Below are positions 2,504-64,000 of a stretch of 64,000 nucleotides of DNA, piece after piece. Under the pieces are notes generated by a model. It had not been told where the DNA came from. It worked only from the letters and a program-made list of their open reading frames with translations, and ran no database searches. The stretch's first letter is position 1, and the number at the start of each line of letters is the position of its first letter. The stretch covers positions 7,951-71,950 of the forward strand of contig CAYGCZ010000001.1 in NCBI GenBank assembly GCA_964348495.1, read 5' to 3'. The translations under genes were made by a program, and so were the position numbers. Source of the DNA: an uncultured Candidatus Saccharibacteria bacterium. Its GTDB lineage: Bacteria; Patescibacteriota; Minisyncoccia; Phycocordibacterales; UBA2135.

Positions 2504-5500
2504 ATGAAAAAGAAATATTTTAAACGCTATCGGGATCCGCGCATCGGCATTCCCAACTTGGTGGAGGCGCAACTTGAGTCCTACCAAGAGCTTCAGAAGA
2601 GCGGGATCAGCTCTCTCTTGAAAGAGTTCTCTCCGATCAGAGACTATTCCGAGAAGAAGTTCGACATGGAGTTCACCAAGTTTGAGCTCGGTGAGGCAAA
2701 GCGTGACGAATTCTACGCCAAGGATCACAAGCTGACCTACGAAGCCCCGCTTCGCGTAACGGTCAAGCTCAAAAACAAGACTCTCGGCACCGAGAACGAG
2801 CAAGAGATCTTTCTTGCTGATTTTCCGTTGATGACGGATCACGGCACCTTTATCATCAATGGCAACGAGCGCGTCATCGTCTCACAGCTCGTCCGTTCGT
2901 TCGGCGTCTCTTTTACGAGCATGCCCCTGAAGGGCAAGATCTATTTCGGTGCCAAGATCATCCCTTCGCGCGGCGCGTGGATCGAGTTTGAGTCGGAGCC
3001 GGACGGCTCTATCGCCGTGCGCATCGACAAGAAGCGTAAATTCCCCATCTCCTCACTCTTGCGCATCTTTGCCTCCGAGCAGAATATTTTCCCTAAACAG
3101 GATGGGTCGGTCGATGAAGCTCTTATGGCCGTCTTCGCCGACGACGAGCATGCGACGGCCGCCCTCAAAGCATCGTTTGCCAAGGACACCGCCAAGACCA
3201 CCAACGACTCCTATATTGAAGTATACAAACGCCTCCGCGACGGCACGCTCGCGACCGCCGATCATGCGCGCGACTTCCTCGCGACGCTTTTTAGCGCCGA
3301 GCGCTACGACCTTTCGCGTATCGGCCGCTACCGCTTCACACAGATGTTTGGCGAGGAGCACAAAGCGGGCGACACTGACAAGCTCTCCTTCTACGACATT
3401 ACGGCGGTCGTCTCGCACATCGCAAAGCTCAATAATACGCCCAATGCCGAGGCCGACGACATCGACCACCTCGGCGTACGCCGCGTGCGCTTTGCCGGTG
3501 AGATGCTTCACAACCGCTTGCGGGTGGGTATGACGCGCATCAAGCGCAACGTCCAGGACCGCATGTCGACGGTTGATCCGGAGACGACCCTGCCGATGCA
3601 GCTTTTGAACCCGCGCCCCCTCCAAACATCACTCAAAGAGTTCTTCAACACAAGTTCGCTTTCGCAGTACATGAACCAGAAGAACCCGCTCGACGAGCTT
3701 GAGCACCTGCGGACGCTCTCGGCTCTCGGCCCCGGCGGCCTCACCCGCGAGCGCGCGGGCTTTGAGGTGCGCGACGTGCATCCTTCCCACTACGGCAAGG
3801 TCTGCCCCATCCACACGCCCGAAGGCCAGAGCATCGGCCTCGTCTTGCGCCTCTCCATCTTCGCCCGCATCAACGACTTGGGCATCTTGGAGACGCCCTA
3901 CGCACGCGTCAAGAATGGTGTGATCACGAGCGAGATCATCTACATGGACTCGCTTGCGGAAGAGCGTCACAACATCGCGCATGCCGCGACACCTTCGGAT
4001 GAGAAGGGTAAAATCTCCGTCGACTTCGTCGAGGTCCGCACCAAGGACAAGCGCGGCGAAGTAACCCTTGTACCTGTTGAAGAGGTGGAGTTTATCGACA
4101 TTGCGGCCAATCAGCCCTTCTCGGTGGCGACATCGCTCATTCCCTTCTTGGAGCACGACGACGCGAACCGCGCTCTGATGGGTTCTAACATGCAAAAACA
4201 AGCGGTGCCCTGCATCGTGCCGCATATGCCTCTCGTTGCAACAGGTATGGAGGGACGCGCCGCCGTCGACTCCGGCCGTCTCGTGCTCGCCAAGGAGAGC
4301 GGCGTCGTCGCCGCCATGGACGCTTCGTCCGTTACGGTGAGGAACGACAAGGGCAAGGATATCGAGCACCGCATGGTCAATTTCGCCCGCACCAACGACT
4401 TCTCAGTATTTCACCAGCGTCCGATCGTGGAGATGGGTCAGAAGGTGAAGAAAGGTGAGCCGCTTGCCGATGCCGCCTCGACGGTTGATGGTGAGCTCGC
4501 GCTCGGTCAGAACGTCCTTGTGGCCTTCATGTCATGGGGCGGTTCCAACTACGAGGATGCCATCATCCTTTCGGAACGTCTTGTGCGCGACAGTGTCTTT
4601 TCATCAATCCATCTCGAAGAGATCGAGGTCGCAGTGCGCGATACAAAACTCGGTCCCGAAATGACTACCCCCGATATCCCGAACATCGGCGAGGGCAAGC
4701 TCAAAGACCTCGATGAAAGCGGCATTGTGCGCATCGGTGCCGAGGTCGGCCCCAACGACATTCTCGTGGGCAAGATCACGCCCAAAGGTGAGGCGGAGCT
4801 GACTCCCGAAGAGCGCCTCTTGCGCTCGATCTTCGGCGAGAAGGCGCGCGACGTAAAGGACACCTCAAAGCGTATGGAGCACGGCAAGCGCGGTCGTATC
4901 ATCGGCATCCGCGAGTTCTCGCGCGAGCGCGGCGACAACCTCGAGTCGGGCATCATCAAGCGCATCAACGTGGACATCGCGCAGTTGCGCAACGTCTCGG
5001 TGGGTGACAAGCTCGCCGGACGCCACGGCAACAAGGGTGTCATCTCAAAGAGCCTTCCGATCGAAGAGATGCCCTACACAAAGGAGGGTACTCCGATTGA
5101 CGTCATCTTGACGCCGCTCGGCGTTCCTTCGCGCATGAACTTGGGTCAGATCCTCGAGTTGCACCTCGGTCTTGCGGCCAATACGCTCAAGTACCAAGCC
5201 ATCGTGCCGCCGTTCCTCGGCGCCACGGAGGGCGAGATTCGCGAGGAGCTCAAAGAGGCCGGCTTCAACGAGAACGGCAAGATGACCCTCTACGACGGAC
5301 GCACCGGCGAAAAGTTCGATCAGGATATCGCCGTCGGATACATGTATGTGCTCAAACTGCACCACATGGTCGAGGACAAGATCCACATGCGTTCCATCGG
5401 TCCTTACTCGCTCATTCACCAGCAACCGCTTGGCGGCAAGGCGCAGGGCGGCGGTCAGCGCTTCGGAGAAATGGAGGTCTGGGCACTCGAAGGATACGGC

Positions 5501-16581: not shown

Positions 16582-16674
16582 TAATCGATTGTGGGTGAGT
16601 AACTGACTTTTGATATAGGATATGCTATACTCGCCAAAGGTTTTTAAATAGCGACTTGAAGAGGAGAAAAAAGC

Positions 16675-16899
16675 ATGGCTTTTTCTTTTACGTCTAAAGA
16701 GTTGGCGGAAATGCCCTTTCCGCAGGAAAACAAAAAATGTCCCTGTGGTTGCGGGAAGCAACTCATGGGCGACAAAGAAGATCGTCAAGTAATGATGGTC
16801 GACGGAGTTCCACAGGAGGTGAACGCCGATTGCTACTATAAAGGATTAAGCGACCTGATCGACAAGAACCCTGTCGGTCTCCCGACAAAAAGCGAGTAA
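16675..16899 (+). CDS. small Cys-containing hypothetical protein (CPCGCGK motif)
   Basis: 74-aa ORF with an upstream gaggag RBS. No recognisable family. Confidence 0.35.
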   Translation: MAFSFTSKELAEMPFPQENKKCPCGCGKQLMGDKEDRQVMMVDGVPQEVNADCYYKGLSDLIDKNPVGLPTKSE

Positions 16900-17051
16900 C
16901 GCATCTTCCGCCCCCCGCGCCGGCGTTGGTTTCACTACCAACCCGGCGTTTTTGTTTATTTCCAACCACTCAATCACCCACCCATCCATCCATCCACCAA
17001 CATACTTACATACGCACTCACCTACTCACATATTCACATCCGTCACTCCGG

Positions 17052-17085
17052 AACCTAAAATGATGCACGTGCATCATTTTAGGTT
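17052..17085. repeat. perfect 34-bp palindrome aacctaaaatgatgcac|gtgcatcattttaggtt (palindrome family C, copy 1)
   Basis: Exact two-fold symmetry. It is flanked by a CA-rich arm (16962-17040) and a GT-rich arm (17107-17180). Confidence 0.95.
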
Positions 17086-17227
17086 ACCTTGATTTTTGAT
17101 ACGTAGTTGAGCGCGTGTGTATCGAGTGTGCATCGAGTGCGCGTGTGCGTGAGTGAGTATGTGTGGCATGAGAGGGGATTTGATGCTACGATAGACGCAC
17201 GTTTGTTCGGGGGCGAGCGGATGCATC

Positions 17228-17797
17228 ATGAAGATTCGCGATACCGAGATACCCCTTACTCAGATCGTCCTCGCCCTCGCGGCAGTCGGTGGGTTGTTGC
17301 TTATCGTTGCGGTCGTACCCAACGTCTCCCAAATTTTCAAACTCTTCGGCATTGGAAAAAGAAAAAAGAGCTATACTCCCAAGCAGTACAGCCGTGCCGT
17401 CAAATCATTGGAGCGGCAAGGGTATGTTGCCATTCGGCGTACCGGCCGCGACGAGCGGATTCATATTACGCCCGAAGGTCGTATGGCTTTCGAGCTGTAT
17501 AGGGCACGTCATCTCGACACCGCCCGCCCTAAAAAGTGGGATGGCAAATGGCGTGTGATTATTTTTGATATTGATCGAAAGCGGAGTTTTTTACGCAATA
17601 GGCTTCGTAATACGCTACAAGGTGTAGGTTTTGTGTATGTACAACATAGCGTATGGGCGTTTCCCTATCCTTGCGAATGGCTGGTGCAATTGATAAAAGT
17701 TGATTGCGAGGTGGGTACAGAAGTGCTCTTCCTTACCGTTGAAGCACTAGAAGGTGATGAACGACTACGTCAACATTTTCGTTTGCCACATAAATAA
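17228..17797 (+). CDS. PaaX-like protein: N-terminal TM helix, winged-helix domain and C-terminal Cas2-like (PaaX_C-type) domain
   Basis: TM segment IVLALAAVGGLLLIVAVV. wHTH YSRAVKSLERQGYVAIRRTGRDERIHITPEGR. WDGKWRVIIFDIDRKRSFLRNRLRNTLQGVGFVYVQHSVWAFPY resembles the Cas2/PaaX C-terminal core. Confidence 0.55.
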   Translation: MKIRDTEIPLTQIVLALAAVGGLLLIVAVVPNVSQIFKLFGIGKRKKSYTPKQYSRAVKSLERQGYVAIRRTGRDERIHITPEGRMAFELYRARHLDTARPKKWDGKWRVIIFDIDRKRSFLRNRLRNTLQGVGFVYVQHSVWAFPYPCEWLVQLIKVDCEVGTEVLFLTVEALEGDERLRQHFRLPHK

Positions 17798-17841
17798 CAC
17801 AGAACCTAAAATGATGCACGTGCATCATTTTAGGTTCTGTG
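17798..17841. repeat. perfect 44-bp palindrome (family C, copy 2; same core as 17052-17085, extended by cacag/ctgtg)
   Basis: cacagaacctaaaatgatgcac|gtgcatcattttaggttctgtg. It overlaps the stop codon of the PaaX-like gene. Confidence 0.95.
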
Positions 17842-17910
17842 GTTTTTGTTTTTTTGGTGAACGGTGTTTTGTCGGATAGTTTTTTTGATGGGCGGTATTT
17901 TTTTGACATT

Positions 17911-17935
17911 AAAAAACCTCCGGGGTTGCCGGAGG
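17911..17935 (-). terminator. terminator of the minus-strand CDF gene
   Basis: cctccgg/ccggagg stem preceded on the plus strand by aaaaaa, which is a T-tract on the minus strand. Confidence 0.5.
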
Positions 17936-17960
17936 TCGGGAAGGGCTACTGGTTATCCGT

Positions 17961-18551
17961 TCATGCATGGTGGTGATCTGCCTCCTTTCCTTGGATGGTT
18001 GTGTAGGTTATCCAGAGGGTGAGTAGGATCATATATACCGAAATCCAGAATGATAGATATGCATCCCACTGTGCGCCACCGGCGTATACGATGATAGCCG
18101 AGGCGAGTACAGCAAATGAAATGAGGACATCGCACAGAAGGTGCGCGTTTACGATGGTCTTGAGCGATCCGCCGTGCATGGGATGAATTATAAGGAACTG
18201 TCCGGCATTTCCTCCCAAACCGATCAGTGCGCCCACGCTCATGAGCAGAGGGTCGACGGGTATCGATCCTGCGTCAATGCGGTGCATCGCCTCGGCGTTT
18301 ACACGCAGTGCGCCGTAGGCGAGGAGGAGTATGCCGGCAATCACGACGGCGCGCCGCAGGGATGCTTTGTTGAGGATCATTGCCGCGAAGGCACCTCCCG
18401 TAACGAGTATGTCGGTAGACATATGCCACGCGTCGCCGGCGAGGGCATTGCTGGCGGAGCAATGTACGAGGATCCATTGCATACAAAGCGCAAGAGATCC
18501 AATACCAAGTGCGAAACCATATCTTCGCGCATCGTGCGTATGAGTGTGCAT
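17961..18551 (-). CDS. cation diffusion facilitator (CDF) family transporter, membrane domain only
   Basis: HMSTDILVTGGAFAAMIL and HAEAM...D metal-site motifs, 5-6 TM segments and a His-rich end (DHHHA). At 196 aa it lacks the usual cytoplasmic C-terminal domain. Confidence 0.65.
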   Translation of the reverse strand: MHTHTHDARRYGFALGIGSLALCMQWILVHCSASNALAGDAWHMSTDILVTGGAFAAMILNKASLRRAVVIAGILLLAYGALRVNAEAMHRIDAGSIPVDPLLMSVGALIGLGGNAGQFLIIHPMHGGSLKTIVNAHLLCDVLISFAVLASAIIVYAGGAQWDAYLSFWISVYMILLTLWITYTTIQGKEADHHHA

Positions 18552-18570
18552 GACACACCTCCGTTTGGGT

Positions 18571-18693
18571 TTATTAGCGACGTAGAGCGAGTGAAATGAG
18601 AAAACGAAGCGAAGCGGAGTTTTCTCATTTCCGAGCCGAGGAGCTAATATGGGTTCAATACCTCGGGGCTCTGCCCCGAGGGACTATATTGCA
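18571..18693. repeat. Repeat family B copy 1 (~123 bp)
   Basis: About 85% identical to 55824..55947. It has internal IR atgagaaaac...gttttctcat and a perfect hairpin cctcggggc-tct-gccccgagg. Confidence 0.85.
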
Positions 18694-18755
18694 GTGAAAG
18701 AACTATATGCAGACAACCATATTTTTTTCCTATGCGCAAGACATGTTTGGGGTTA

Positions 18756-18922
18756 AGAGCCTGTTCAAGATCTCGCGGTACCCAACGTGAACATACAGGT
18801 TTTTAGGCGAAACATGAGTCGGAGCACGAGTCGTACTAGTAGTACGACGAGTGTGAGACGAAATTTTGTAGCCAAAAACCTCGTGTTTTCAGGTTGGGGG
18901 AAGATCTTGAACAGGCTCTAAG
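18756..18922. repeat. Repeat family A copy 2 (167 bp, perfect 17-bp TIRs)
   Basis: gagcctgttcaagatct ... agatcttgaacaggctc. Same internal structure as 2276..2442. Confidence 0.85.
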
Positions 18923-18929
18923 AACTATA

Positions 18930-18970
18930 TGAAACGCCCCCCGTTTGCGTAGCAAACGGGGGGCGTTTCA
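18930..18970. terminator. bidirectional intrinsic terminator (19-bp perfect stem)
   Basis: tgaaacgccccccgtttgc-gta-gcaaacggggggcgtttca. It lies immediately 3' of the minus-strand DsbA-like gene. Confidence 0.7.
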
Positions 18971-18981
18971 TATCGTGCGCT

Positions 18982-19843: not shown

Positions 19844-20338
19844 ATGGCTATGGTAAAAGGTAGCAGTCGTGCACGGTTGAATATTTTGCTTGCTGCACAG
19901 AAATTATTTTCGGAGAGAGGGTATGAGGGAGCTTCCACGACAGATATTGCCAATGAGGCCGGGGTAACCCAACCCCTTATTCACTATCACTTTCAGAGCA
20001 AGCAAAAGCTTTTTAAGGAAGTGATTCGGGAAGGACTGGTGATAGTGGGGAAGGTGAAGGAAAATTTTTTCCTTCCCGTTGGAAGGATTCACACGGATGT
20101 GTTGACAATAATTCTCAGGGAGTCTGTTTCCAAAGGAGAAATATGGGGATGGATCGAAGAGTTTTTCGATGGCGGAGTGCCAAACATCTTTTTGGAAAAG
20201 ATGTACGGGAGGTTGATACACGGATGGAAAAACCCTTTTTTTCTTCAAAACGAGTATGAAAAGAGGAATGGAAACCCATTTCAGCCCGATGAGGGGGGCT
20301 GGATTCACTTCGATATCTCAACATTCACTTCACTGTAA
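19844..20338 (+). CDS. TetR-family transcriptional regulator
   Basis: N-terminal HTH RLNILLAAQKLFSERGYEGASTTDIANEAGVTQPLIHYHFQSK. Lower-GC gene. Confidence 0.8.
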   Translation: MAMVKGSSRARLNILLAAQKLFSERGYEGASTTDIANEAGVTQPLIHYHFQSKQKLFKEVIREGLVIVGKVKENFFLPVGRIHTDVLTIILRESVSKGEIWGWIEEFFDGGVPNIFLEKMYGRLIHGWKNPFFLQNEYEKRNGNPFQPDEGGWIHFDISTFTSL

Positions 20339-20354
20339 GTGAATGTTGAGATAT
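20313..20354. promoter_or_regulatory. perfect 17-bp inverted repeat (candidate TetR operator or attenuator) spanning the TetR stop codon
   Basis: atatctcaacattcact-tcactgta-agtgaatgttgagatat, located 77 bp upstream of the ATP-cone nuclease start at 20431. Confidence 0.45.
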
Positions 20355-41698: not shown

Positions 41699-42553
41699 AT
41701 GCGTGATCGGTATTTTGTGATACATAAGGAAGTGGGCGAGACGCCGCTTATGACGGTGGAGCGTTTGCGCGCGGAACGAGGTATCGCGCCCCACGTTAAA
41801 CTCGCCTACGCCGGCCGGCTTGACCCGATGGCGAGCGGGGCGTTGCTCGTACTTACGGGTGATGAATGCAAGCGGCAAAAGGCCTATCACGGCCTCGACA
41901 AAGAGTACGAGTTTGAAGTCCTGCTTGGCGTTTCATCGGACACGGGCGATGTATTGGGATTGGCAGAATACGATCAGATACAGGAACCTACAATCATGCA
42001 CGTGCATGATTGTAGGTTCCCTTTTTCTTCGCGTATGCTTATGAGTGCGGCGCGTTCGTTTCTTGGCACGCACACCTTTCCCTACCCCGCCTTTTCATCA
42101 AAGACCGTCGGCGGGGTGCAGTTGCACCGGCTTGCGGCGGAGGGGCGGTTGAACAAGGCGGAACTGCCCGTACGAGAGGCGACCGTCTATCGGTTGCGCC
42201 TCATTGGGGTGCATACGATCGGCAAGGACGCTCTGCATGCCGCCATCCTCAAAAAGATTGGTACCCTGCCGCAAGTAACCGATGAAGAAAAAGCATGGGG
42301 CAGGGACTTTCGCCGCGAAGAGATCATCGCGCGATGGCGCGATATCTTCGCGAAGATACCCGATGGCGCCTCGTTTCAGATCGCCCGTTTCTCGTGCATT
42401 TGTTCTTCCGGAACCTACATGCGCACCCTCGCCGAAAAGATCGCCGAGCATCTCTCGACGCGCGGCCTCGCCTTCTCCATCCACCGCACAAAGATCGGCC
42501 GCTACATCCCTGTTCTCAGTAAGTGGGGCGTATGGGTACGTCTCTATTGTTAG
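41699..42553 (+). CDS. truB: tRNA pseudouridine(55) synthase-like protein
   Basis: GRLDPMASG, KRQKAYHGLDKEYEFEVLLGVSSDTGD, CSSGTYMRTLAEKIAEHL. Contains the in-frame palindrome 41983..42020. Confidence 0.8.
   Translation: MRDRYFVIHKEVGETPLMTVERLRAERGIAPHVKLAYAGRLDPMASGALLVLTGDECKRQKAYHGLDKEYEFEVLLGVSSDTGDVLGLAEYDQIQEPTIMHVHDCRFPFSSRMLMSAARSFLGTHTFPYPAFSSKTVGGVQLHRLAAEGRLNKAELPVREATVYRLRLIGVHTIGKDALHAAILKKIGTLPQVTDEEKAWGRDFRREEIIARWRDIFAKIPDGASFQIARFSCICSSGTYMRTLAEKIAEHLSTRGLAFSIHRTKIGRYIPVLSKWGVWVRLYC
41983..42020. repeat. perfect 38-bp palindrome (family C variant) inside the truB coding sequence
   Basis: ggaacctacaatcatgcac|gtgcatgattgtaggttcc. It shares the atgcacgtgcat core and aacct/aggtt ends with 17052 and 17798. 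Confidence 0.9.
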
Positions 42554-42560
42554 TTGGGTT

Positions 42561-42623
42561 ATAGGAACTTTTTTAGGTAACTCGGCAAATCAGATTTGCC
42601 GAGTTACCTAAAAAAGTTCCTAT
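42561..42623. repeat. perfect 63-bp palindrome (30-bp arms, 3-nt centre)
   Basis: ataggaacttttttaggtaactcggcaaat-cag-atttgccgagttacctaaaaaagttcctat. The arms are an exact reverse complement. Confidence 0.95.
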
Positions 42624-42645
42624 ACTTCAATAATCCCCACACACC

Positions 42646-42685
42646 AAACAAAAAACAGCATCTCGCGATGCTGTTTTTTGTTTGC
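42646..42685. terminator. bidirectional terminator between truB and cspA
   Basis: caaacaaaaaacagcatc-tcgcga-gatgctgttttttgtttg. Confidence 0.7.
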
Positions 42686-61948: not shown

Positions 61949-62668
61949 TTATTGCTGATGTTTTTTCCATGATTCAATCTTACTATTGAGGGTTTCAAGA
62001 ATACTATCAAAAATAATATCGGGGGCTTGTGAGGCGTCTATACTGACTATTCTTTCTGTTATTTCAAGTGGTAATCTCTTGCGAGCATTATAAAAAATAT
62101 CATATGAATCTTCTATTAATTTCCTTCTGAATTCAAGTTTAGGATCGGCAGGATCAAGTCTTCCCAATATAACTTCTTTTTCTGCGGTTAATTCAAAAAT
62201 AACATCGGGCAAAATATCGTCGAGGATAATCTTTTCTCCACGCTGGATAGGATAAAGATCTGAAATTAAAAGTATGTCATTAGCTGGATTATCTCTATCT
62301 ATTACAAATGATGCTCTTGATAAAAGAGACCGATCCAGAAGTGCGACTTGCTTATTAAGTACCCGTGCTTTCATTCGCCACTCCTTCATCTCTGTAACAA
62401 GTTTATATGCAGCCTCATGCCATTCTTCTGTGGTGCCTTGCTTACGAATTTTTTTGGCGTTCTCTTGCCACCAGATGTCAAATGGATCACCGTCGTGTGA
62501 ACCAGTGCCTTCTCGAGTACCATCTCCGCGTAACTCAACAAAATCAACATCGAGTTCTTTGAAAACTTTTTTTAGAAGATCTATCTGTGTTCCCTTTCCG
62601 ACACGATTAATACCTTCAAATGCTATGGTAGAAAGATCATTTGATTGATTCCTGAAACTTTCTTTCAT
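61949..62668 (-). CDS. thymidylate-kinase-like (dNMP kinase fold) protein with atypical P-loop
   Basis: AFEGINRVGKGTQ, versus the Tmk consensus IEGIDGAGKST. The gene is AT-rich. Confidence 0.55.
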   Translation of the reverse strand: MKESFRNQSNDLSTIAFEGINRVGKGTQIDLLKKVFKELDVDFVELRGDGTREGTGSHDGDPFDIWWQENAKKIRKQGTTEEWHEAAYKLVTEMKEWRMKARVLNKQVALLDRSLLSRASFVIDRDNPANDILLISDLYPIQRGEKIILDDILPDVIFELTAEKEVILGRLDPADPKLEFRRKLIEDSYDIFYNARKRLPLEITERIVSIDASQAPDIIFDSILETLNSKIESWKKHQQ

Positions 62669-63059
62669 AAGCGTTTTTTATTACATCGGAGGTCTTTGGT
62701 GTGAATTCCATATTTTCCATATTTTCTATAGTCATCCACGAAACTTCCTCCGTATCTTCTAAAGCTTTCGGTTCTCCTGATTCATAATCTGCAGTATAGA
62801 CGATGTAGACCATTCCATATATTTCTTTTTCTTTTATATTATTCTGAATCACGCAAAAGTTTTTTATTTTTATGCCAACCTCTTCCATAACTTCACGCTC
62901 TAACGCAGACTCTAGGTTCTGATCGCTCATATCTACCGTTCCGCCGGGAATACCCCATAATCCAGGAAAAACATCTTCCTTCATTGATCTTTTAACAATA
63001 AGCACCTTATCGTTATTGAAAATTACTACTGATACGTTAACTTTGAAAAATTTTGCCAT
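62637..63059 (-). CDS. NUDIX hydrolase
   Basis: Nudix box GGTVDMSDQNLESALEREVMEEVGI. It overlaps the Tmk-like gene by 32 nt. The start was taken at ATG 63059. Confidence 0.85.
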   Translation of the reverse strand: MAKFFKVNVSVVIFNNDKVLIVKRSMKEDVFPGLWGIPGGTVDMSDQNLESALEREVMEEVGIKIKNFCVIQNNIKEKEIYGMVYIVYTADYESGEPKALEDTEEVSWMTIENMENMEFTPKTSDVIKNAYERKFQESIK

Positions 63060-63063
63060 ACGC

Positions 63064-64000
63064 TTATATTTTAAATGTCTGTTCATTTTCTTCTATTGAA
63101 GATAGAAACATACTTGAAATTATTTTAGTGGTTAATAATTGATTCTCGATAAGAGTATTGCTTTGAGTATCATTTGCAAGGAATTTCTTGAAAATAATAT
63201 ATCGGGAAGTCTCATTCTGACCGAGATATTGAGGTAGGTCGGCATGATACTTATGATATATTTCTTGAACAAAGTTCCTAGTATCGAAAGATTTACCTCC
63301 AATCAACTTATTATTTCTAAAGAGGTTAATCTCTTGATGTTCTATGCCACCTACATCATATTTCGAATGTTCATCAACCCTTGCTGATTGATATGAGTGA
63401 AGCTGAATATTGAATAGCGGACCGATATGTAAATTAATATACTCATGCCTAAGACGACCATTCCCTTTATAGGTGTCCTTAGGAAGATCATACCATGCAC
63501 GACCAGAGAAACCAGACTGGAGCAGGTCTAGGTGTCCGAAAGAAACCACGTTCTCTCTATTGATTGGATATTCGCCATTTCTCAAGAAAAAACGTGTATA
63601 CGAGTCAACTTCGCCCATGTACATATTGGAGGGTTCATCAGTATCCTTTTCGAATAATCGCTTAAAAAGTTCCTTGCCTCCTATCTGCCTATAGTGAGTC
63701 TGTGGTTTTATGAGCTCTGTCCTATTGGAGAGATAAAGCATGGGTAGAATTACTTTATTTGTTTCTATTATCCATGCGACAATATCAATAAAATGATATC
63801 CAGAGTGCATGATTTTCCCATAACCATATTTATAAGGGTGATTCTCTCGAGAAAGATACTCTTCAGGCATATTCCACTGACCATCAGAGTGATGAATGTT
63901 AAAGAATGTGATTGGTATACCGTACTCCTTCACAATCTTAAGAGCTTCTTCGAAGATAAAAATATACGCTGGATGTTCTCGTCGTTGGGCTAAAACATAA
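63064..64000 (-). CDS. hypothetical protein, 5'-truncated by the window edge
   Basis: The reading frame stays open to position 64000; the GTG at 63933 is only an internal candidate start. No family was recognised. The region is AT-rich. Confidence 0.4.
   Translation of the reverse strand, partial: YVLAQRREHPAYIFIFEEALKIVKEYGIPITFFNIHHSDGQWNMPEEYLSRENHPYKYGYGKIMHSGYHFIDIVAWIIETNKVILPMLYLSNRTELIKPQTHYRQIGGKELFKRLFEKDTDEPSNMYMGEVDSYTRFFLRNGEYPINRENVVSFGHLDLLQSGFSGRAWYDLPKDTYKGNGRLRHEYINLHIGPLFNIQLHSYQSARVDEHSKYDVGGIEHQEINLFRNNKLIGGKSFDTRNFVQEIYHKYHADLPQYLGQNETSRYIIFKKFLANDTQSNTLIENQLLTTKIISSMFLSSIEENEQTFKI

Follow-up and report, generated by a model that had tools for sequence, protein, structure and literature searches.

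The PaaX-like gene of the window (the whole 64,000-nt stretch of DNA analysed here) belongs to a gene family that, in the Patescibacteria, is normally flanked by its own palindromes. Comparison of the sequences of related loci shows that this bracket, made up of a 5′ copy and of a 3′ copy that abuts the stop codon, is the normal state of the family; across the loci compared, bracketing by a locus-specific palindrome pair is a conserved architecture. Because the same arrangement recurs at dozens of related genes, with a different palindrome for each, the palindrome is most likely the predicted site of the very protein that is encoded beside it. Tentatively, we read the three palindromes of the window as cognate DNA sites (~36–44 bp, dyad-symmetric) of the winged helix-turn-helix (wHTH) and Cas2-like protein encoded between copies 1 and 2. 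The Patescibacteria (candidate phyla radiation, CPR) have almost no characterised regulators or cis elements, and literature searches on PaaX, Cas2 and Patescibacteria/CPR yielded nothing on a palindrome-gene-palindrome architecture.

Palindromes and gene of the window

The features considered here are the following.

~16989–17170, no strand: longer imperfect hairpin with copy 1 at its tip (DNA fold; boundaries soft)
17052–17085, no strand: upstream copy (copy 1), perfect 34-bp palindrome, AACCTAAAATGATGCAC/GTGCATCATTTTAGGTT (slash at the centre)
17228–17797, + strand: PaaX-like gene, 189-aa product (Pfam, fold model)
17798–17841, no strand: downstream copy (copy 2), perfect 44-bp palindrome, CACAGAACCT...AGGTTCTGTG
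17842–17857, + strand: T-rich tract GTTTTTGTTTTTTTGG, directly 3′ of copy 2
41699–42553, + strand: truB (tRNA pseudouridine-55 synthase), host of copy 3, ORF intact through the insertion
41983–42020, no strand: truB copy (copy 3), perfect 38-bp palindrome, GGAACCTACAATCATGCAC/GTGCATGATTGTAGGTTCC

All three palindromes are perfect and have a loop length of zero, and copies 1 and 2 lie on either side of the PaaX-like gene; in these respects the original prediction, which had described two exact palindromes bracketing the gene and a variant in truB, holds. It had also placed the 44-bp copy across the stop codon of the gene. In fact, the first base of copy 2 is the base directly 3′ of the TAA (17795–17797), which the palindrome abuts, and only a 93% extension (17792–17847) reaches into the stop codon. 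The unit common to the three copies is 36 nt long (GAACCT...AGGTTC). In copy 1 this unit occupies 17051–17086, with a single mismatch at its final base (17086 A). Copy 3 differs from copies 1 and 2 by two changes per arm, 7 and 11 nt from the centre, both of which are compensated in the opposite arm; it is identical to them at positions 1–6, 8–10 and 12–18. The core ATGCACGTGCAT occurs three times, as compared with 0.21 expected, a count reached in 0/100 shuffles, and the 18-nt half-site with at most two mismatches occurs six times, as compared with 0.06 expected.

Successive copies are separated by 712 bp and then by ~24 kb, a spacing on which we rejected a CRISPR array (at least three regular repeats with spacers of 25–70 bp). 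No further palindrome of this type was found in the window or in an extra 8 kb upstream, which came from two ENA contigs of the same genome retrieved through exact protein matches; three other window proteins had no such match on record. Over the resulting 72 kb, two of the three copies flank the PaaX-like gene. The same DNA is found in independent public assembly records, one of which (L002) is 100% identical across 20.9 kb, and every palindrome is internal to its contig, with none at a contig end. Public scans with the pattern AACCTN6ATGCACGTGCATN6AGGTT gave 0 matches among genomes sampled one per species, 0 in viral contigs, and one in metagenome contigs, on a high-GC soil contig (L001). 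This contig is a diverged 4-kb inverted duplication with the motif in its centre, and the match is probably unrelated.

The 189-aa protein contains a hydrophobic helix (residues ~13–31), a wHTH (~51–95) and a Cas2-like ferredoxin-fold domain (108–183) of the PaaX_M type, in which the Asp of the Cas2-type motif 'IIFDI' is kept. PaaX_M (PF20803) matches residues 102–178 with 58.3 bits (cut-off 24), and winged-helix Pfam models match as well; PaaX_C gives no match in Pfam, the protein stopping at residue 189. Its best profile match is PaaX, and the NCBIfam model for PaaX, TIGR02277, scores 34.6 bits, far under its cut-off of 264.55. Foldseek, run with an AlphaFold model of pLDDT 78, places the E. 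coli repressor PaaX 8A39 first among PDB entries (E = 5.8e-7, TM 0.56), followed by PaaX-like regulators and Cas2 proteins. Scans with Pfam, NCBIfam and PADLOC found no transposase or recombinase domain, and defence-system models gave only weak Cas2 and CARF-wHTH matches. The closest homologue anywhere is 38% identical. The PaaX-like gene is the only one in 72 kb of this genome, and the window contains no second PaaX_M paralogue as a possible owner of the truB variant. Its neighbours encode a UvrD/PD-(D/E)XK helicase, a 74-aa ORF, a cation-efflux protein and a DsbA-like protein; no paa genes are nearby.

The ATG of the PaaX-like gene follows 143 nt after the end of copy 1. A –10-like TAAAAT, with TTCACA 17 nt upstream of it, lies inside the left arm of copy 1 and faces inward; it is the sole promoter-like match, and the match count of the region is no higher than expected by chance. 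Copy 1 also forms the tip of the 16989–17170 hairpin, whose left CA-rich flank pairs with its right GT-rich flank (DNA fold z = –3.56, equalled in 0/200 shuffles). The outer ends of this hairpin resemble the CCCACATAC...GTATGTGGG ends of the gene family. On the sense strand, copy 2 and the T-rich tract together constitute an intrinsic-terminator-like unit, copy 2 folding as RNA with –47.1 kcal/mol (z = –7.8). Copies 1 and 3 likewise have a T5 run no more than 13 nt away, and all three copies are flagged as terminator-like on the + strand, with stems of 15–20 pairs and then a T run. Since a T5 run within 13 nt is found at 2.1% of positions, its presence at all three copies by chance has p ~1e-5. 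Rfam at the gathering threshold matched only tRNAs in the window and 15 related loci, and a tRNA scan of the window found none.

These T runs and stems, and the lack of any other terminator for the PaaX-like gene in the window, would be in line with palindromes that need no specific protein partner and act purely via transcription or RNA. As hairpin terminators or insulators, such palindromes would close the gene off on either side, the truB copy being an accidental intragenic hairpin. We consider this improbable in view of the related loci described below; moreover, termination within truB would do harm. All three copies do have the hairpin and T tract of an intrinsic terminator, but the position of copy 3 within the truB ORF and the conserved centre and outer blocks of the homologous sites are at odds with a pure one.

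Palindrome pairs in related genomes

The gene family is widespread, with 525 confirmed loci in a scan of one genome per species, and occurs in hundreds of species. For comparison we used 82 homologous genes in 80 loci from Patescibacteria MAGs. A palindrome (score of at least 9) is present at 64 of the 82 genes. The downstream palindromes are ~40 bp long and mostly start between –14 and +60 nt from the stop codon. At 43–45 of the 64, a second palindrome with the same inner 14 nt in its arms lies just 5′ of the gene. The arms vary from locus to locus, yet remain complementary, and the centre is semi-conserved as CGNNCG, CTATAG or CAYRTG. Upstream and downstream copies are 0.72–0.93 identical within ±20 nt, and identity drops to background (0.25–0.35) beyond; extended direct repeats or remnants of tandem duplication around the palindromes were rejected for this reason. 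A genome can contain several divergent paralogues (e.g. the loci L051, L059 and L064), each with its own palindrome.

Palindromes with a signature centre number 96 in 589 kb of these loci; 89 of them adjoin family genes, in a total of ~32 kb, and five of the remaining seven repeat the local palindrome at a distance of no more than 0.9 kb. Solo copies far from a family gene are absent from these 589 kb, the truB copy of the window being the exception. This distribution contradicts the alternative against which the original prediction had been set, namely ubiquitous REP-like terminators with no bias toward the gene. REP/RAYT elements were also rejected on the grounds that Pfam identifies only PaaX_M and a winged helix in the protein and that there are three copies in 72 kb. 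No conserved partner gene was found in the 80 loci: the biggest neighbour cluster comprises 5 of ~150 neighbours, and the orientations of the neighbours are mixed. In one locus (L072), three palindrome copies also bracket a second small gene.

Both base pairing and copy-to-copy identity are high at positions 2–5 and 11–18, counted from the centre, and relaxed at positions 6–10, in upstream and downstream copies alike. In 103 aligned sites, 87.3% of cells are paired, as compared with 48.6% in shuffles, a percentage that is inflated because the sites were picked as the best palindromes. The covariation score of these sites is 0.888 versus 0.206 (0/500 shuffles), and slid-partner controls give 35–45% paired. 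In the downstream copies, G·T-type and A·C-type mismatches number 35 and 36, respectively, and transversions make up the majority of mismatches. The central GT/AC dinucleotide has one orientation in ~11 loci and the opposite in ~9. Judged from these alignments, the constraint pattern and the kinds of mismatch fit a site that is read as double-stranded DNA better than one that acts as a hairpin in RNA, and an RNA-hairpin reading was rejected for want of a G·U signature.

The same data count against terminators or insulators that lack a protein partner. Mismatches compatible with G·U are not in excess, and stem stability alone fails to explain a conserved centre hexamer and outer block with relaxed positions 6–10 between them. 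Nor do terminators need a locus-specific sequence common to both copies. Downstream copies in the family lack a T tract, and in the high-GC relatives L064 and L067 a separate canonical terminator lies 3′ of the palindrome. In class-A relatives, finally, transcripts would begin at the outer end of the upstream palindrome and would not include this copy as a hairpin.

In relatives, a –10 box with a leaderless ATG either overlaps the upstream copy or directly adjoins it. Distances from the palindrome centre to the ATG peak sharply at 17 nt, the value found in 13 of 46 loci. Loci of this 17-nt class have TAnnnT at +6 to +11 of the gene-proximal arm and the ATG at +18 to +20; in a second class (35–52 nt), a TATAAT-like hexamer followed by 6 nt and the ATG stands between the palindrome and the start. 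Copy 1 of the window lacks this outward-facing –10 and ATG geometry. Partial Mantel tests, which are liberal for related sequences, indicate that the outer block of the site tracks the wHTH domain (r = 0.136, p ~0.001) and the inner block the Cas2-like domain (r = 0.166, p ~0.001). Between the inner block and the wHTH domain there is no such correlation (p = 0.54), nor is there any between the middle block and either domain. These correlations suggest that the site blocks covary weakly with the protein domains.

Operator, mobile module or other element

If the palindromes are operators, a symmetric dimer of the encoded protein would bind double-stranded DNA, with its Cas2-like core over the semi-conserved centre (positions 1–5) and its two winged helices over the outer blocks (positions 11–18), leaving positions 6–10 mostly free of contacts. 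Protein bound to the upstream copy would occlude its own promoter, resulting in negative autoregulation. For the downstream copy we infer the role of a second operator, which could act by looping, as a roadblock or as an insulator; given the T tract after each copy in this genome, it might double as a hairpin terminator. The truB copy would be a secondary event, in which a copy of the 36-nt site entered a surface loop of TruB that tolerates it; translation of this copy adds 12 residues to the protein.

The original prediction had offered two explanations, operator sites for autoregulation and a small mobile or recombination unit. The former gains from the promoter overlap, the constraint pattern and the covariation seen in relatives, and loses from the distance between the window copy and the ATG. 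From these comparisons, the prediction is supported in part, operators being the better supported of its two explanations. Several observations sit uneasily with operators. A second operator right at the 3′ end of the gene is an unusual need for a simple repressor, and perfect complementarity of 17–22 bp per arm is more than a wHTH dimer needs. The perfection of the arms may owe something to correction from one arm as template for the other, or to a hairpin or cruciform function. The way in which the 36-nt copy entered truB is unexplained by the operator model.

The hydrophobic helix raises a further problem, one of predicted topology. A hydrophobic 19-mer is present at the N-terminus of 63 of 65 family proteins, and the flank N-terminal to it is the more basic one in 56 of 65 (5.5 versus 3.0 K+R). 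By the positive-inside rule, this predicts an N-in/C-out orientation, in which case the DNA-binding domains would be extracytoplasmic. The charges of the window protein, exceptionally, predict C-in.

It has to be asked, then, whether the protein might be anchored at the cell surface as a sequence-specific receptor for DNA or as a nuclease, built like ComEA/NucA with an N-terminal anchor ahead of DNA-binding and nuclease-like domains. The palindromes would then be tags that resemble DNA uptake sequences and mark its own gene on both sides, so that extracellular DNA carrying them is preferentially bound and taken up. Apart from the predicted C-out topology of the family, such a role would be in keeping with the cognate sites on both flanks of the gene, the variable genomic contexts, the absence of a recombinase and the conserved Cas2-type Asp. 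In addition, Patescibacteria are thought to depend on DNA uptake, and the DNA uptake sequences of Neisseria often occur as inverted pairs at gene ends. We nevertheless find this very improbable. Each module has 2–3 sites, whereas known uptake sequences number hundreds to thousands per genome. Basic residues are found C-terminal to the helix as well (3.0 K+R in 15 residues), an argument against export, and the charges of the window protein itself point the other way. An upstream copy so closely tied to the –10 box and ATG suggests that the site acts in cis within the cell, and there is no experimental precedent for such a receptor.

It is also possible, if unlikely, that the palindromes delimit a very small module that is mobile or selfish and whose protein recognises and perhaps nicks its own sites and thereby copies or moves them or the cassette. 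The truB solo copy would then be a product of the protein's own activity. Within truB, the inner 36 nt of copy 3 (41984–42019) make up 12 codons, EPTIMHVHDCRF, in frame, and the insertion point is a variable loop of TruB, which is 44 aa long in the window and 32–34 aa in 100 of 106 homologues. Compared with these homologues, the truB copy is a genuine insertion of ~36 nt. This insertion favours mobility, as do the locus-specific site on both flanks of the gene, the retention of the Cas2-type active-site Asp (D114 of 'IIFDI', invariant across the family and lost in E. coli PaaX), the divergent paralogues with their individual palindromes, the mixed orientations and lack of conservation of neighbour genes, the N-terminal helix with its likeness to a membrane anchor, and the bracketed second gene of L072. 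The helicase and DsbA-like genes, which are separated by 2.4 kb including the module in the window, are adjacent in two relatives with no module between them.

For the mobile unit of the original prediction, the truB insertion and the absence of the module from two relatives thus speak in favour, and the following observations against. There is no known transposase or recombinase domain and no target-site duplication: the longest string common to the two flanks averages 4.83, compared with 4.57 ± 0.18 for shuffled pairs, and is 2 at the module of the window. On these two counts the module departs from an insertion sequence or transposon. Few copies are solo (7 of 96 in 589 kb), and almost none are dispersed. 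With one gene copy in 72 kb and a nearest homologue of 38% identity, recent multiplication is not indicated. Neighbours common to some related genomes imply vertical inheritance there, and the fixed placement of the sites relative to the –10 box and ATG speaks for an integrated role in regulation.

A further possibility is a new kind of minimal selfish module, whose protein is anchored in the membrane, binds DNA sequence-specifically, has a Cas2-like domain competent as a nuclease, and acts on its own flanking palindromes. Such a protein may nick or copy the palindromes, the truB insert being a product, or may bind tagged extracellular DNA at the cell surface and so promote the uptake of its own gene. 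We hold this to be doubtful, at the level of the partnerless terminators considered above. If it were true, a Cas2-like fold would be working with repeats of ~36–40 bp in the absence of Cas1.

Finally, the palindromes could be sites of a host site-specific recombinase, in the manner of Xer/dif or integron attC, and the gene a cassette between such sites. Two inverted arms around a 6-bp centre do resemble the core site of a recombinase, a site lies on each side of the gene, and the cassette-like runs of L072, with three sites, fit such a scheme. To this we attach hardly any credence. Paralogues of one genome have different arms and could not be served by a single host recombinase, and the mostly symmetric centres would leave direction undefined. 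Neighbour clustering revealed no integrase adjoining the 80 modules, and the palindromes are perfect, without the extrahelical bases or the RYYYAAC/GTTRRRY boxes of attC. Integron attC sites were rejected on the perfect palindromes, on flanks that misfit the core-site consensus and on the missing integrase; Xer/dif failed on its defining features.

Should the preferred reading of the palindromes as operators be correct, the dozens of natural protein-site pairs already matched by position would provide a ready data set on how wHTH and Cas2-like domains read DNA, as well as a set of mutually orthogonal repressor-operator pairs. They would also be evidence for leaderless, palindrome-embedded promoters in the Patescibacteria. 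If, instead, the protein cuts or moves its sites, it would represent a Cas2-like protein acting on palindromic repeats without Cas1, with a bearing on the origin of CRISPR adaptation modules and of small mobile elements. The in-frame copy in truB shows that such sites are able to enter essential genes.

Comparison with known systems

The best structural match, E. coli PaaX (8A39), has the same domain order as the window protein, an N-terminal winged helix and then a Cas2-like middle domain, and PaaX binds dyad-symmetric DNA near promoters. The window protein differs from PaaX in being only 189 aa long, in lacking PaaX_C, and in having an N-terminal hydrophobic helix and the Cas2 active-site Asp. 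Its sites also differ, being ~40 bp long and lying on both flanks of its own gene, with no paa genes nearby.

In REP/REPIN-RAYT systems, a single gene is reportedly flanked by its own cognate palindromic repeats. As with those systems, different gene-and-repeat pairs can coexist in one genome, and the repeats are ~35 bp long. Unlike RAYT, the window gene does not encode an HUH Y1 transposase, and unlike REP, its repeats are neither dispersed in high copy number nor provided with a conserved GTAG head. REP sequences are imperfect hairpins, whereas the palindromes of the window are perfect, with zero loop.

In IS200/IS605, IS10, IS911 and other insertion sequences, the terminal inverted repeats carry the transposase promoter or operator. 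The module shares with such elements a small gene between two copies of the would-be site of its product and, at ~0.7–0.8 kb, is near the unit length of IS200. As in an insertion sequence, the 5′ copy would overlap the promoter, so that binding would autoregulate expression. The module is unlike an insertion sequence in lacking a transposase fold, target-site duplication and identical multicopy elements, and each of its ends is itself a full palindrome.

The window copies resemble intrinsic (Rho-independent) terminators in that each forms a strong hairpin with a T run behind it on the + strand, although one of them lies inside an ORF. The family sites of other genomes differ from terminators in lacking the T tract, in their conserved centre and outer sequence with a relaxed middle, and in the matched second copy at the 5′ end of the gene. 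The truB copy recalls the Rickettsia palindromic elements, which are said to be inserted in frame in protein-coding genes: in both cases a palindromic element lies in frame in a housekeeping gene and adds residues to a tolerant loop. Rickettsia elements are 100–150 nt long and occupy dozens of genes; by contrast, the truB element measures 36–38 bp, is the one intragenic copy in 72 kb and is part of a family of sites linked to a regulator-type gene.

A final parallel is offered by the C-protein/C-box control units of restriction-modification systems, the subject of PMC2632904. C-boxes lie upstream only, unlike the two-sided sites of the present family, and C-proteins have neither a Cas2-like domain nor a hydrophobic N-terminus and reportedly always accompany restriction-modification genes. 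Yet C-proteins are small HTH regulators with family-specific palindromic operators at their own, sometimes leaderless, promoters, and their specificity co-diversifies across homologues, as it may in the family described here.

Palindromes of the window

Three palindromes and one gene form the feature under study, and their positions are as follows.

17052-17085: copy 1, perfect palindrome without a loop, 34 bp
17228-17797, + strand: PaaX-like gene (189 aa), bracketed by copies 1 and 2
17798-17841: copy 2, perfect palindrome without a loop, 44 bp
41983-42020: copy 3, perfect palindrome without a loop, 38 bp, inside truB

The original prediction, that palindromes flank the PaaX-like gene and that a variant lies within truB, holds: all three are perfect and share a 36-nt unit, GAACCT-N6-ATGCACGTGCAT-N6-AGGTTC, with a single mismatch in copy 1, at the last base. 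Copy 3 departs from the other two at two positions in each arm, every change being compensated in the opposite arm. Within the window, the 12-nt core occurs three times (0.21 expected) and the 18-nt half-site six times (0.06 expected). Copy 2, said to overlap the stop codon, does adjoin the TAA but begins on the base directly 3′ of it. No further family members were seen in the window or in 8 kb of additional upstream sequence from the same genome. The palindrome region is identical across independent public assembly records, which excludes a contig-end artefact. Only one public match to the palindrome pattern was found, in a soil metagenome contig (L001, Ga0137405_1359810). There, a near-palindrome at 1996-2029, GGAACCTTGGCTGATGCACGTGCATCACCCAAGGTT, lies precisely midway along a 4-kb high-GC contig made up of a diverged inverted duplication of enoyl-CoA-hydratase-like genes; its connection with the window palindrome is probably coincidental, though odd.

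It is conceivable that such elements act purely as terminators or insulators. All three copies, the truB copy included, were flagged as terminator-like, and each is followed on the + strand by a run of five T residues at most 13 nt downstream; since the background for such runs is 2.1% of positions, the probability of three in three is about 1e-5. Against this, a T tract is found nowhere else in the family, and two high-GC relatives (L064 and L067) carry a separate canonical terminator beyond the palindrome. Terminator function is therefore a local addition rather than a defining property, and the pure terminator or insulator reading is quite unlikely.

The window holds other notable sequences. 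A 42-bp palindrome with 18-nt arms and a 6-nt loop (20313-20354) overlaps the stop of a TetR-type gene (19844-20338) and extends as far as the ATG of the following ORF (20353); it may be a further operator or terminator, exactly between two genes. A perfect 31-bp palindrome, GCACTCGTCGTACTA G TAGTACGACGAGTGC, lies at 2344-2374, 130 nt upstream of rpoB, and recurs in a second assembly (L003). At the right end, 62001-64000 has a G+C content of 36%, versus about 46-58% elsewhere; it carries minus-strand genes, a NUDIX gene among them, and is possibly of foreign origin. For this small-genome bacterium, ARAGORN found no tRNA gene, and no Rfam family reached its gathering score, in the 64-kb window.

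The bracket as a trait of the gene family

Using a profile of 30 homologues to scan one genome per species, we confirmed 525 loci and fetched 80. The 110 nt after each stop codon, when read through, contain a long palindrome at nearly every gene; by score, a downstream palindrome is present at 64 of 82 genes, starting mostly between −14 and +60 nt from the stop. The arms vary from locus to locus, and the centre hexamer is drawn from a small set (CGGTCG/CGACCG, CGGCCG, CGATCG, CTATAG or CAYRTG); the window centre, CACGTG, is of the CAYRTG type, like those of loci L039 and L005. A second palindrome with the same inner 14 nt of arm lies shortly before the gene at 43-45 of these 64 loci. Differences between the two copies (e.g. 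at L039, L018 and L083) leave each of them palindromic. Identity between copies is 0.72-0.93 within ±20 nt of the centre and falls to background beyond, so the repeated unit is the ~40-bp palindrome alone.

In 589 kb of these loci, 89 of 96 palindromes with signature centres fall within the ~32 kb adjoining family genes, and five of the other seven are additional local copies no more than 0.9 kb away; the 93 ordinary hairpins elsewhere have different centres. The association with the gene extends far more widely than the window alone could show. Searches of Rfam and the literature found no description of cognate palindromes bracketing a wHTH plus Cas2-like gene. Judged from these comparisons, this arrangement is a conserved architecture across Patescibacteria. 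As a separate observation, the longest contig is under 1.5 kb for ~39% of PaaX_M homologues, versus ~9% for TruB homologues. The long perfect palindromes flanking PaaX_M genes are probably points at which assemblies break, and MAGs may therefore under-represent the family.

Proposed recognition of the sites, and the promoter

Across 103 sites aligned without gaps, 87.3% of cells are paired, versus 48.6% in shuffles and 35-45% in slid-partner controls; the 87.3% is inflated because sites were chosen as the best palindromes. Pair-type diversity at every position is not inflated by that choice, and the covariation score (0.888 versus 0.206) was matched in none of 500 shuffles. Counting outward from the centre, positions 2-5 and 11-18 pair well and agree closely between copies, and positions 6-10 are relaxed on both counts; upstream and downstream copies alike show this. 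Mismatches in downstream copies are predominantly of transversion type, with 35 of G·T type and 36 of A·C type, a spectrum with no sign of selection for sense-strand RNA pairing. The asymmetric central dinucleotide (GT or AC) is oriented the same way at ~11 loci and the opposite way at ~9, and no Rfam family matches the sites. Recognition of double-stranded DNA by a symmetric protein fits all this better than an RNA hairpin.

Upstream copies show a sharp mode of 17 nt from centre to ATG (13 of 46 loci). In this class, the gene-proximal arm reads centre, 5 nt, TAnnnT (mostly TATAAT-like), 6 nt and ATG, and the hexamer is a predicted −10 box at the spacing suited to a leaderless mRNA. In a second class (35-52 nt), the stretch between palindrome and start reads TATAAT-like hexamer, 6 nt and ATG. 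A factor bound to the palindrome would therefore lie over the core promoter or directly beside it. In downstream copies, the −10 hexamer and ATG are often lost, with the inner and outer blocks retained. The window is atypical, with 143 nt from the end of copy 1 to the ATG, and its sole promoter-like match, with an inward-facing TAAAAT, is not above chance. Copy 1 forms the apex of a longer imperfect hairpin, and the outer ends of this hairpin are similar to the CCCACATAC...GTATGTGGG ends seen in the family. The CA-rich tract to its left (CCACCCATCCATCCATCCACC..., 16960-17051) and the GT-rich tract to its right (GTGTGTATCGAGTGTGCATCGAGTGCGCGTGTGCGTGAGTGAGTATGTGTGG, 17086-17170) pair in this ~180-nt hairpin (z = −3.56), which has the look of an older and larger palindrome centred on the perfect unit.

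Protein-site covariation was assessed over 64 loci by partial Mantel tests, a liberal method. With the Cas2-like region controlled for, the outer block (11-18) follows the wHTH region (r = 0.136, p about 0.001); with the wHTH controlled for, the inner block (1-5) follows the Cas2-like domain (r = 0.166, p about 0.001). The inner block shows no such link to the wHTH (p = 0.54), nor does the middle block to either domain. Though the effects are weak, the pattern matches a model that places a Cas2-like dimer over the dyad and winged helices on the outer blocks. Recognition of the ~40-bp dyad site by the protein, with autoregulation of the gene through the 5′ copy, is the best-supported mechanism, and we favour it tentatively.

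Possible mobility and the nature of the protein

Copy 3 lies within truB, and the ORF reads through it. The TruB loop between the D(T/S)GDVLG and FSSK motifs is 32-34 aa long in 100 of 106 homologues and 44 aa in the window protein, where the added residues correspond to EPTIMHVHDCRF, which is the 36-nt unit translated as 12 codons. The truB copy is therefore an insertion: a housekeeping gene received a pre-formed palindrome, by copying, in a loop that tolerates it. Nearby, starting 7 nt past the truB stop, lies a perfect 65-bp palindrome (TATAGGAACTTTTTTAGGTAACTCGGCAAATC A ...; 42560-42624; arms of 32 nt, loop of 1 nt) that occurs only once in the window, and a separate canonical bidirectional terminator follows at 42645-42684.

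Such an insertion is what a mobile or selfish module might leave. Genomes also carry multiple divergent paralogues, each with its own palindrome, and the genes have no conserved neighbour and mixed neighbour orientation. At locus L072, three copies of one palindrome (3906-3950, 4803-4848 and 5382-5429; central dinucleotides gt, ac and gt) also enclose a second small gene: the first two lie on either side of the PaaX_M gene plus 270 nt, and the last two flank an opposite-strand 99-aa ORF (4928-5227). Also in favour of mobility, two relatives (L089 and L090) lack the segment with the module, their helicase (57% identical) and DsbA-like genes being direct neighbours; in the window, 2.4 kb (16582-18981) separates the two genes and comprises a 74-aa ORF, the PaaX-like gene and a cation-efflux gene. 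Some related genomes, however, share neighbours. Moreover, no transposase or recombinase domain, target-site duplication or near-identical gene copies were found, and dispersed solo copies are almost nil. We therefore consider mobility unlikely. That the palindromes mark DNA for uptake is very improbable, and that they are sites for a host recombinase is less probable still.

A hydrophobic N-terminal helix occurs in 63 of 65 family proteins (residues ~9-45; 13-31 in the window protein), ending in a nearly invariant A-P-N and preceded in most members by a K/R-rich tail. Such a membrane-anchor-like helix is unexpected in a winged-helix DNA-binding protein. The flank before it is more basic than the flank after it in 56 of 65 proteins, which by the positive-inside rule predicts exported DNA-binding domains; the flank after it is likewise basic, and the charges of the window protein predict the opposite orientation. 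If the domains lie outside the cell, autoregulation fails and a reading as a surface DNA receptor or nuclease gains weight.

The window derives from a Paceibacterota/Patescibacteria MAG whose closest available relatives are distant (TruB 56%, helicase 66% and PaaX-like protein 38% identical). The PaaX-like protein matches Pfam PaaX_M, the Cas2-like middle domain of PaaX (58.3 bits), and winged-helix models; NCBIfam matches to PaaX and Cas2 are all sub-threshold. Its AlphaFold model (pLDDT 78) has a winged helix at ~51-95 and a ferredoxin-like domain at 108-183. Among PDB entries, the model is closest to PaaX, the E. coli repressor (8A39, E = 5.8e-7), and next to PaaX-like regulators and Cas2 proteins. 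Unlike PaaX, the family retains the Cas2-type Asp of strand 1 ('IIFDI', with D114 invariant).
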